Shown: positions 53,578 through 53,811 of the stretch, one piece after another
Layout: each line of letters begins with the position of its first letter
Numbering within the stretch: position 1 is the first letter of the stretch
From: Escherichia coli
Lineage (GTDB): Bacteria; Pseudomonadota; Gammaproteobacteria; Enterobacterales; Enterobacteriaceae
Assembly: GCF_003334335.1 (NCBI RefSeq)
Contig: NZ_QOWQ01000015.1
DNA: 64,000 nt
Strand: one strand, 5' to 3'
The notes under the pieces: model-generated
Seen by the model: the letters and a program-made list of their open reading frames with translations, nothing else
Databases searched by the model: none
Told to the model about the DNA's origin: nothing
Made by a program: the position numbers and the translations under genes

Positions 53578-53811
53578 TCGGATGCACGACCCGTAGGCCG
53601 GATAAGGCGCTCGCGCCGCATCCGGCAATCAATGCCTGATGCGACGCTGTCGCGTCTTATCAGGCCTACAACTATTGCCGACCTGTAGGCCGGATAAGGC
53701 ACTTGTGCCGCATCCGGCAATCAATGCCTGATGCGACGCTGTCGCGTCTTATCAGGCCTACAACTGTTGCCGACCCGTAGGCCGGATAAGGCGCTCGCGC
53801 CGCATCCGGCA
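53578..53811. repeat. REP/BIME array with tandemly repeated ~117-bp unit (rhaA-rhaD intergenic)
   Basis: Unit gtaggccggataaggcgctcgcgccgcatccggcaatcaatgcctgatgcgacgctgtcgcgtcttatcaggcctacaact(a/g)ttgccgacc occurs twice in full plus a partial third copy. Confidence 0.92.

Follow-up and report, generated by a model that had tools for sequence, protein, structure and literature searches.

The rhaA-rhaD spacer of Escherichia coli: a five-REP BIME-2 array, very probably an allele of the K-12 REP299a-i locus

REPs, or palindromic units, are imperfect palindromes of 30-40 nt that carry a conserved GTAG/CTAC tetranucleotide at their foot. They also occur combined into composite elements. BIME-1 consists of y and z1, is present in a single copy and has a long L linker that bears an IHF site, whereas BIME-2 joins z2 and y through a short linker and occurs as tandem copies whose number varies by strain. 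One such array is already on record for the rhaBAD operon of strain K-12. It is REP299a-i in EcoCyc, and a mobilome study describes a REP cluster "located within an operon (rhaBAD)" and reports that REP299 was predicted by RAREFAN to be a RAYT-associated REPIN. The RAYT gene itself, tnpA-REP (yafM), is located on the chromosome between yafL and fhiA, outside the 64-kb stretch of E. coli DNA analysed here (hereafter, the window).

Stabilisation or differential decay of mRNA is the classic role of the REP family, and the family is also described in the literature as an exonuclease barrier, as an attenuator of transcription and as a cause of ribosome stalling when the stop codon is no more than 15 nt away from a REP. 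In malE-malF-type mRNA stabilisers, as in rhaBAD, REP hairpins stand between the cistrons of a sugar-catabolic operon; the effect on decay was demonstrated there (Newbury et al. 1987, as cited in later work), whereas for rhaBAD we suggest it by analogy. Our search of the literature on rhaBAD mRNA processing found no data on the REPs between rhaA and rhaD. Another BIME-2, REP325, lies between yjdM and yjdN, and one of its Y/Z2 units is known as naRNA4.

Anatomy and identity of the array

The array occupies the 266-bp spacer between rhaA and rhaD, on the minus strand in the rhaBAD operon. The 801 bp around it are 100% identical to DNA of E. coli strain H2 (NZ_CP010163), from which the RefSeq gene coordinates were taken and in which the gene order is frvA-rhaM-rhaD-rhaA-rhaB, with rhaS divergent. 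This is the only sizeable spacer of rhaBAD(M), as rhaB and rhaA overlap and the gap between rhaD and rhaM measures 9 nt. Strain WP2-W18-ESBL-08 has an additional gene, for a carbohydrate porin (locus L011, 717-2111), between frvA and rhaM; neither K-12 nor strain H2 possesses it. In the order of the mRNA, the features of the locus are:

53816-55075, minus strand: coding sequence of rhaA (L-rhamnose isomerase), stop codon TAA at 53816-53818 (RefSeq annotation of identical DNA, ORF list)
53587-53811, no strand: tandem array, 2.4 copies of a 92-bp BIME-2 unit (Tandem Repeats Finder, repeat search, lag identity)
53777-53810, minus strand: Y REP no. 1, GCCGGATGCGGCGCGAGCGCCTTATCCGGCCTAC (motif census; predicted RNA hairpin -21.3 kcal/mol)
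53762-53776, no strand: tail-to-tail linker, 15 nt, AACTGTTGCCGACCC
53726-53761, plus strand: Z2 REP, GCCTGATGCGACGCTGTCGCGTCTTATCAGGCCTAC, holding the natural IS621 target ATCAGGCCTAC at 53751-53761 (census; -21.9 kcal/mol)
53719-53725, no strand: head-to-head linker AATCAAT, 7 nt (REP coordinates and sequence)
53685-53718, minus strand: inner Y REP variant, GGCAC..GTGCC (census; predicted hairpin -20.0 kcal/mol)
53670-53684, no strand: tail-to-tail linker, 15 nt, AACTATTGCCGACCT
53634-53669, plus strand: second Z2 REP, same sequence as the other Z2, with ATCAGGCCTAC at 53659-53669 (census)
53627-53633, no strand: head-to-head linker AATCAAT, 7 nt (REP coordinates and sequence)
53593-53626, minus strand: last Y REP (census)
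53550-53720, minus strand: spurious in-frame, TTG-started extension of rhaD, 57 codons (ORF 52725-53720)
52725-53549, minus strand: coding sequence of rhaD (rhamnulose-1-phosphate aldolase), 274 aa; ATG 53547-53549, Shine-Dalgarno AGGA 53559-53562 (annotation)

Tandem Repeats Finder described the array with a period of 92, 2.4 copies, 93% matches and a score of 415. All other arrays in the window score 50 or less, which makes this the strongest tandem repeat of the 64 kb and bears out an earlier note on this DNA that had called it the densest. The repeat search placed the copies in register, with starts at 53587, 53679 and 53771. Self-identity over 53578-53811 reaches 0.887 at a lag of 92 but only the background level of 0.359 at a lag of 117. 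The tandem periodicity on which the earlier note relied thus holds, at 92 bp and not at the ~117 bp proposed, a figure probably obtained by dividing the 234-bp interval in two. The array also begins at 53587 instead of 53578, with five mismatches between its two full copies (at 53592, 53609, 53612, 53614 and 53674) where two point differences had been counted. The description of two full copies and a partial third was accurate; the third measures 41 nt and is identical to copy 1. Chance can be excluded, because the 92-bp units are 95% identical (93-95% by the different measures) and their motifs were reproduced in none of 100 shuffles of the window. A CRISPR-like array was considered and dropped, because the units are contiguous and have no unique spacers.

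The motif census, run with a variable-gap regular expression, identified five REPs in the array, in the mRNA order (minus strand) Y, Z2, Y, Z2, Y and with alternating orientation, which confirms the two inverted REPs per unit that had been proposed. A fixed-length REP pattern missed the array because Y and Z2 are unequal in length. Each unit is made up of 34 (Y) + 7 + 36 (Z2) + 15 = 92 bp. The 34- and 36-nt palindromes each end in CTAC and have an internal mismatch or bulge in each stem, as expected of palindromic units, and they agree with the published references for Y (TGCCGGATGCGGCG...CGCCTTATCCGGCCTAC) and Z2 (GCCTGATGCGACGC...GCGTCTTATCAGGCCTAC). The inner Y differs from the outer copies by a compensatory change in the stem, from G-C to A-U, and by one change in the loop. 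Across the whole window, the census counted 15 REPs at 9 sites, including the five described here. Lone REPs were noted at 141, 9310, 15797 and 22837, and a Y paired with a short Z1-type REP about 35 nt away, likely a BIME-1, at 39297-39394.

Alternating inverted Y and Z2 REPs, short linkers, tandem conserved copies and a copy number that varies among strains are the properties of a BIME-2. The K-12 MG1655 array REP299a-i shares with the window array its locus, its flanks (100% over 622 bp), the 92-bp Y/Z2 unit and the outer Y variants. The two differ in size: 4.4 units, 9 REPs and a 450-bp spacer in K-12, as against 2.4 units, 5 REPs and 266 bp in the window. An in-register loss of two inner units (184 bp) would turn the K-12 allele into that of the window. 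Taken as a whole, the data are best explained if the array is a BIME-2 in the rhaBAD(M) spacer and the 5-REP allele of the 9-REP K-12 locus REP299a-i, and we consider this very probable. The core of the earlier reading, tandem amplification of a REP/BIME unit in the rhaA-rhaD spacer, is supported by Tandem Repeats Finder, the motif census and the annotation alike. The element is already known and catalogued and is no new kind of element. The finding alone therefore matters little, being that of a textbook BIME-2 at a locus annotated in K-12 and listed as gyrase-cleaved.

The array also accounts for an artefact in naive ORF calls. The ORF at rhaD runs to 331 aa as compared with 274 aa for annotated RhaD, so the 57 additional codons represent read-through into the array, and the extension had rightly been called spurious. 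Coding potential of the array itself was rejected, the ORFs at 53470-53628 and 53731-54009 being REP read-throughs like the rhaD extension. The last Y REP stops 43 nt short of the rhaD ATG and hence leaves the Shine-Dalgarno sequence uncovered.

Other identities for the array can be weighed against that of a REP299a-i allele. Covariance-model searches matched a single Rfam family in the array, naRNA4, twice:

53596-53666, plus strand (antisense to rhaBAD): naRNA4 (RF02564), 77 bits against a gathering score of 59.5
53688-53758, plus strand (antisense to rhaBAD): naRNA4 (RF02564), 76.6 bits

These matches might be taken to mean that the array encodes naRNA4-like, nucleoid-associated sRNAs that bind HU and bridge cruciform DNA, by analogy with what is reported for REP325. 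The two loci do share tandem Y/Z2 units and a covariance-model match above the gathering score, and REP299 and REP325 were both among the 8 REP regions protected from exonuclease in the mobilome experiment. We nevertheless find the proposal very unlikely. REP325 is another locus with another linker set, and at rhaBAD the strand that matches runs antisense to the operon, in the window as well as in the cryptic Escherichia sp. MOD1-EC7003. The rhaBAD-sense strand falls under the gathering score, at 56.5 and 53.2 bits in the window and at 42-56 bits when MOD1-EC7003 is included. Neither strand has a promoter-like site in 53300-54100, and the operon is expressed only on rhamnose. Furthermore, the array is matched because naRNA4 is itself a Y/Z2 unit of a BIME-2, and the model would match any such unit: two other Y/Z2 pairs of the window, at 12807-12890 and 62600-62683, also exceed the threshold (12810-12887, plus strand, and 62603-62680, minus strand). 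We therefore read the match as a family resemblance and not as a sign of an sRNA gene. Rfam annotation will label such arrays "naRNA4" antisense to their operon, and the label should not be equated with a gene.

That the array is an IHF-binding BIME-1/RIP element, or else a terminator of the intrinsic type between rhaBA and rhaD, appears more improbable still, to the point that we give it hardly any weight. IHF had been raised in the earlier note, and REPs are often found at the 3' ends of transcription units. BIME-1/RIP elements also resemble the array in having an inverted REP pair of one superfamily. However, a BIME-1 requires Y, Z1 and a long L linker in a single copy, whereas the array is tandem, has the 36-nt Z2, and contains no long L linker, its linkers measuring only 7 and 15 nt. 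IHF binding is unlikely for that reason, and this part of the earlier note is not upheld. The IHF consensus WATCAANNNNTTR has no match in the array either; this is a weak scan, and since it also missed the likely BIME-1 of the window, the rejection of IHF rests on the linker architecture and not on the scan. As for a terminator, a hairpin followed by a T-run was found on neither strand of 53300-54100 (0 matches), and rhaD is without a promoter-like site of its own in the same interval. We thus retain the 5-REP allele of REP299a-i.

The remaining Rfam matches of the window that reached the gathering threshold are Spot 42 (9166-9284), CsrC (10313-10566), ES222 (17495-17602), STnc370 (19492-19560) and, on the minus strand, a SECIS_3 selenocysteine insertion element (44459-44517).

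Polymorphism of the locus in E. coli and its relatives

A flank-only query matched 5,363 genomes; 60 were taken at even steps down the ranking, and representative alleles were then read. At least 10 length alleles were present among these 60, and the sequenced ones differ by whole 92-bp units:

Span 692 bp: 1 REP, 8/60
Span 784/786 bp: 3 REPs, 11/60
Span 794 bp: 3 REPs, proximal flank 10 bp longer, 3/60
Span 851 bp: 1 REP plus an unrelated GC-rich palindromic element, 10/60
Span 876 bp: 5 REPs, window type, 6/60
Span 886 bp: 5 REPs, longer flank, 5/60
Span 968 bp: 7 REPs, 1/60
Span 1060 bp: 9 REPs, K-12 type, 13/60
Span 1070 bp: 9 REPs, longer flank, 2/60
Split match: IS-interrupted, 1/60

The comparison of copy number across strains that the earlier note had recommended thus gives E. 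coli alleles with 1, 3, 5, 7 or 9 REPs in the 60-genome sample. Records whose 622-bp flanks are 100% identical to those of the window carry 1, 5, 7 or 9 REPs, which indicates that units turn over faster than substitutions accumulate in the flanks. Every REP allele examined has a Y REP at both ends, and in all of them ACACT separates the rhaA stop codon from the REP that follows it. Y REP no. 1 keeps this position, 5 nt past the stop, throughout the E. coli alleles compared. The amplified array as such is dispensable, because 8 of the 60 genomes possess a single REP and 10 another element. With its high variability, the locus is a VNTR-like marker in E. coli. The array of MOD1-EC7003 (locus L012, 1-1078) has at least 10.7 units and at least 21 REPs, the contig ending inside it.

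Several alleles have acquired other elements. The MOD1-EC7003 contig opens with 63 nt that correspond to the end of a multi-copy IS3-family element. They run directly up to a Z2 REP loop, and this suggests that an IS inserted into a REP loop in an IS1397-like manner. In strain WP2-W18-ESBL-08 (NZ_AP021933.1, locus L011, 3522-4800), IS621, an element of the IS110 family with a bridge-RNA recombinase, interrupts the rhaA-rhaD array. Its site in a Z2 REP tail, ATCAGGCCT^AC, is exactly the published natural IS621 target with its CT core. Two intact copies of the 11-mer target are present in the window array and three more elsewhere in the window (12880, 39366 and 62600).

In the 851-bp-span allele, carried by about one sixth of the sampled E. 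coli, including O104:H4 and O103 strains, a Y REP and another element replace the BIME-2 units. This element is a GC-rich palindrome, CCCTCACCC..CCCTCTCCC..GGGAGAGGG..GGGTGAGGG (locus L007, NZ_CP128931.1, 301-541); the Rfam search of the element in L007 matched no family, and it appears to resemble "boxC". Elements of the same CCCTCTCCC/GGGAGAGGG type also occupy this spacer in, among others, Pseudocitrobacter, Enterobacter, Leclercia and Lelliottia (loci L013, L014, L021, L029, L033-L035, L037, L039, L045, L053, L054 and others).

Beyond E. coli, loci anchored on RhaD in 80 species yielded 76 usable rhaA-rhaD spacers (L013-L091), with a median length of 115 nt. A stable GC-rich palindrome occupies the spacer in 72 of these 76 other species and belongs to at least two unrelated repeat families, a figure that is raw, uncontrolled occupancy. 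The predicted fold reaches -15 kcal/mol or lower in 69 spacers and -14 in three more, and four spacers (L025, L058, L066 and L083) are essentially unstructured. REP-like GTAGG/CCTAC motifs occur in 35 of the 76 and CCCTCTCCC/GGGAGAGGG-type motifs in 21; none of the 76 spacers contains both. According to uncontrolled MFE folds, the first paired base lies 15 nt or less from the rhaA stop in 72 of the 76 species. Two further, independent tandem arrays, built of other types of repeat, were encountered at the rhaA-rhaD junction, one of 49 bp x 8.2 in Superficieibacter electus (L043, 2077-2481) and one of 76 bp x 2.2 in the uncultured Enterobacteriaceae UBA5654 (L076, 2206-2374).

Predicted RNA structure, gyrase and possible roles

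The sense-strand RNA of the spacer has a predicted fold of -143 kcal/mol, with z = -7.2 against shuffles, and single REPs are predicted to form RNA hairpins of -20 to -22 kcal/mol. The head-to-head Z2-Y pair is predicted to fold into a single long hairpin of -54.2 kcal/mol, as compared with about -43 for two hairpins, and is in this respect a REPIN. Three of the five differences between copies fall in the Y hairpin, and two of these form a compensatory pair, G13-C18 to A13-U18. Over all alleles, stem pair 13-18 departs from G-C or A-U in only four of 41 Y copies, and some copies carry the A-C intermediate. This covariation, observed at a single stem pair of the aligned copies, fits conservation of the hairpin. 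It cannot separate a role in RNA from one in DNA, because a single-stranded DNA hairpin recognised by RAYT would be conserved likewise.

By analogy with better-studied REPs, the array would be transcribed within the rhaBAD mRNA, where each REP could form a hairpin and each head-to-head Z2-Y pair one long hairpin. Such hairpins may block 3'-to-5' exonucleases and partly attenuate transcription in a Rho-linked manner, and both effects would work to the advantage of rhaB-rhaA relative to rhaD. Terminating ribosomes might also stall at the first stem, because it starts 5 nt after the rhaA stop. New units could arise through the activity of RAYT (TnpA-REP), through slippage or through unequal recombination. 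How many additional units are present is probably almost neutral, since alleles with one REP or with the alternative element are common, and we think that any conserved role would be that of the first hairpin.

At the DNA level, it has been shown by others that DNA gyrase cleaves inside this BIME-2 in vivo, the data being those of the 9-REP K-12 allele. Table DS3 of the Topo-Seq study of Sutormin 2019 lists the K-12 BIME-2 "rhaA>-rhaD>" with 401 bp. The number of cleavage sites between rhaA and rhaD was 4 with ciprofloxacin (Cfx), 2 with rifampicin and ciprofloxacin (RifCfx), 1 with microcin B17 (Micro) and 0 with oxolinic acid (Oxo). In the same work, gyrase favoured Y over Z2 REPs, and the signals at BIME-2 went up when transcription was blocked (Sutormin 2019). 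The suggestion of the earlier note that the array may be a gyrase target thus finds published support, in the K-12 allele of the same locus.

How far these properties matter to the host can be viewed in several ways. The array could be a purely selfish or neutral repeat in a permissive spacer, without effect on rha expression or topology and with hairpins that serve only RAYT and their own propagation. A REP number that ranges from 1 to above 20 without apparent constraint, the replacement of the units by another element in some E. coli lineages (L007), the survival of the locus after IS insertions into the array and the position in the operon's only sizeable spacer all agree with such a view. 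Yet it must contend with a Y REP kept 5 nt past the rhaA stop in every E. coli allele examined, with the stable palindromes of at least two unrelated families at the junction in 72 of 76 other species and with in vivo cleavage of the K-12 allele by gyrase, and we regard it as possible but on the unlikely side. The conserved first REP would find an explanation in a mainly translational role, for which Liang, Rudd and Deutscher (2015) are cited with the criterion of a REP no more than 15 nt downstream of a stop codon. By analogy with their model, the first stem may stall the terminating ribosome and lead to cleavage of the mRNA, tmRNA tagging and less RhaA. With its base at 53810, the stem is 5 nt away from the stop codon 53816-53818 and well inside this limit, the stalling itself being putative; the spacing is unchanged in all E. 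coli alleles compared, and 72 of 76 other species have their first paired base within the same distance. On the other hand, that last measure comes from uncontrolled MFE folds, and a stall at the stop codon accounts for the first REP only and not for the tandem array. We can entertain a mainly translational role no more than tentatively. A broader proposal, which we judge improbable, is that selection for a hairpin after the rhaA stop acts throughout the Enterobacteriaceae, that unrelated families, either species-specific REPs or a CCCTCTCCC/GGGAGAGGG-type element, fill the site convergently in different genera, that at least three lineages (Escherichia, Superficieibacter and the uncultured enterobacterium) amplified their repeats independently and that the E. 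coli copy number is a fast-mutating rheostat and not the product of neutral drift. The occupancy across species is equally compatible with selection and with this being the sole permissive spacer.

If that occupancy did reflect selection, different repeats would have been recruited convergently to a single task at the RNA level. In the rheostat proposal, copy number would heritably set the rhaBA:rhaD expression ratio or the local gyrase-dependent supercoiling. As rhaBAD is inducible, isogenic alleles with 1, 5 and 9 REPs would provide a clean test bed for the effect of REP number on a polycistronic mRNA.
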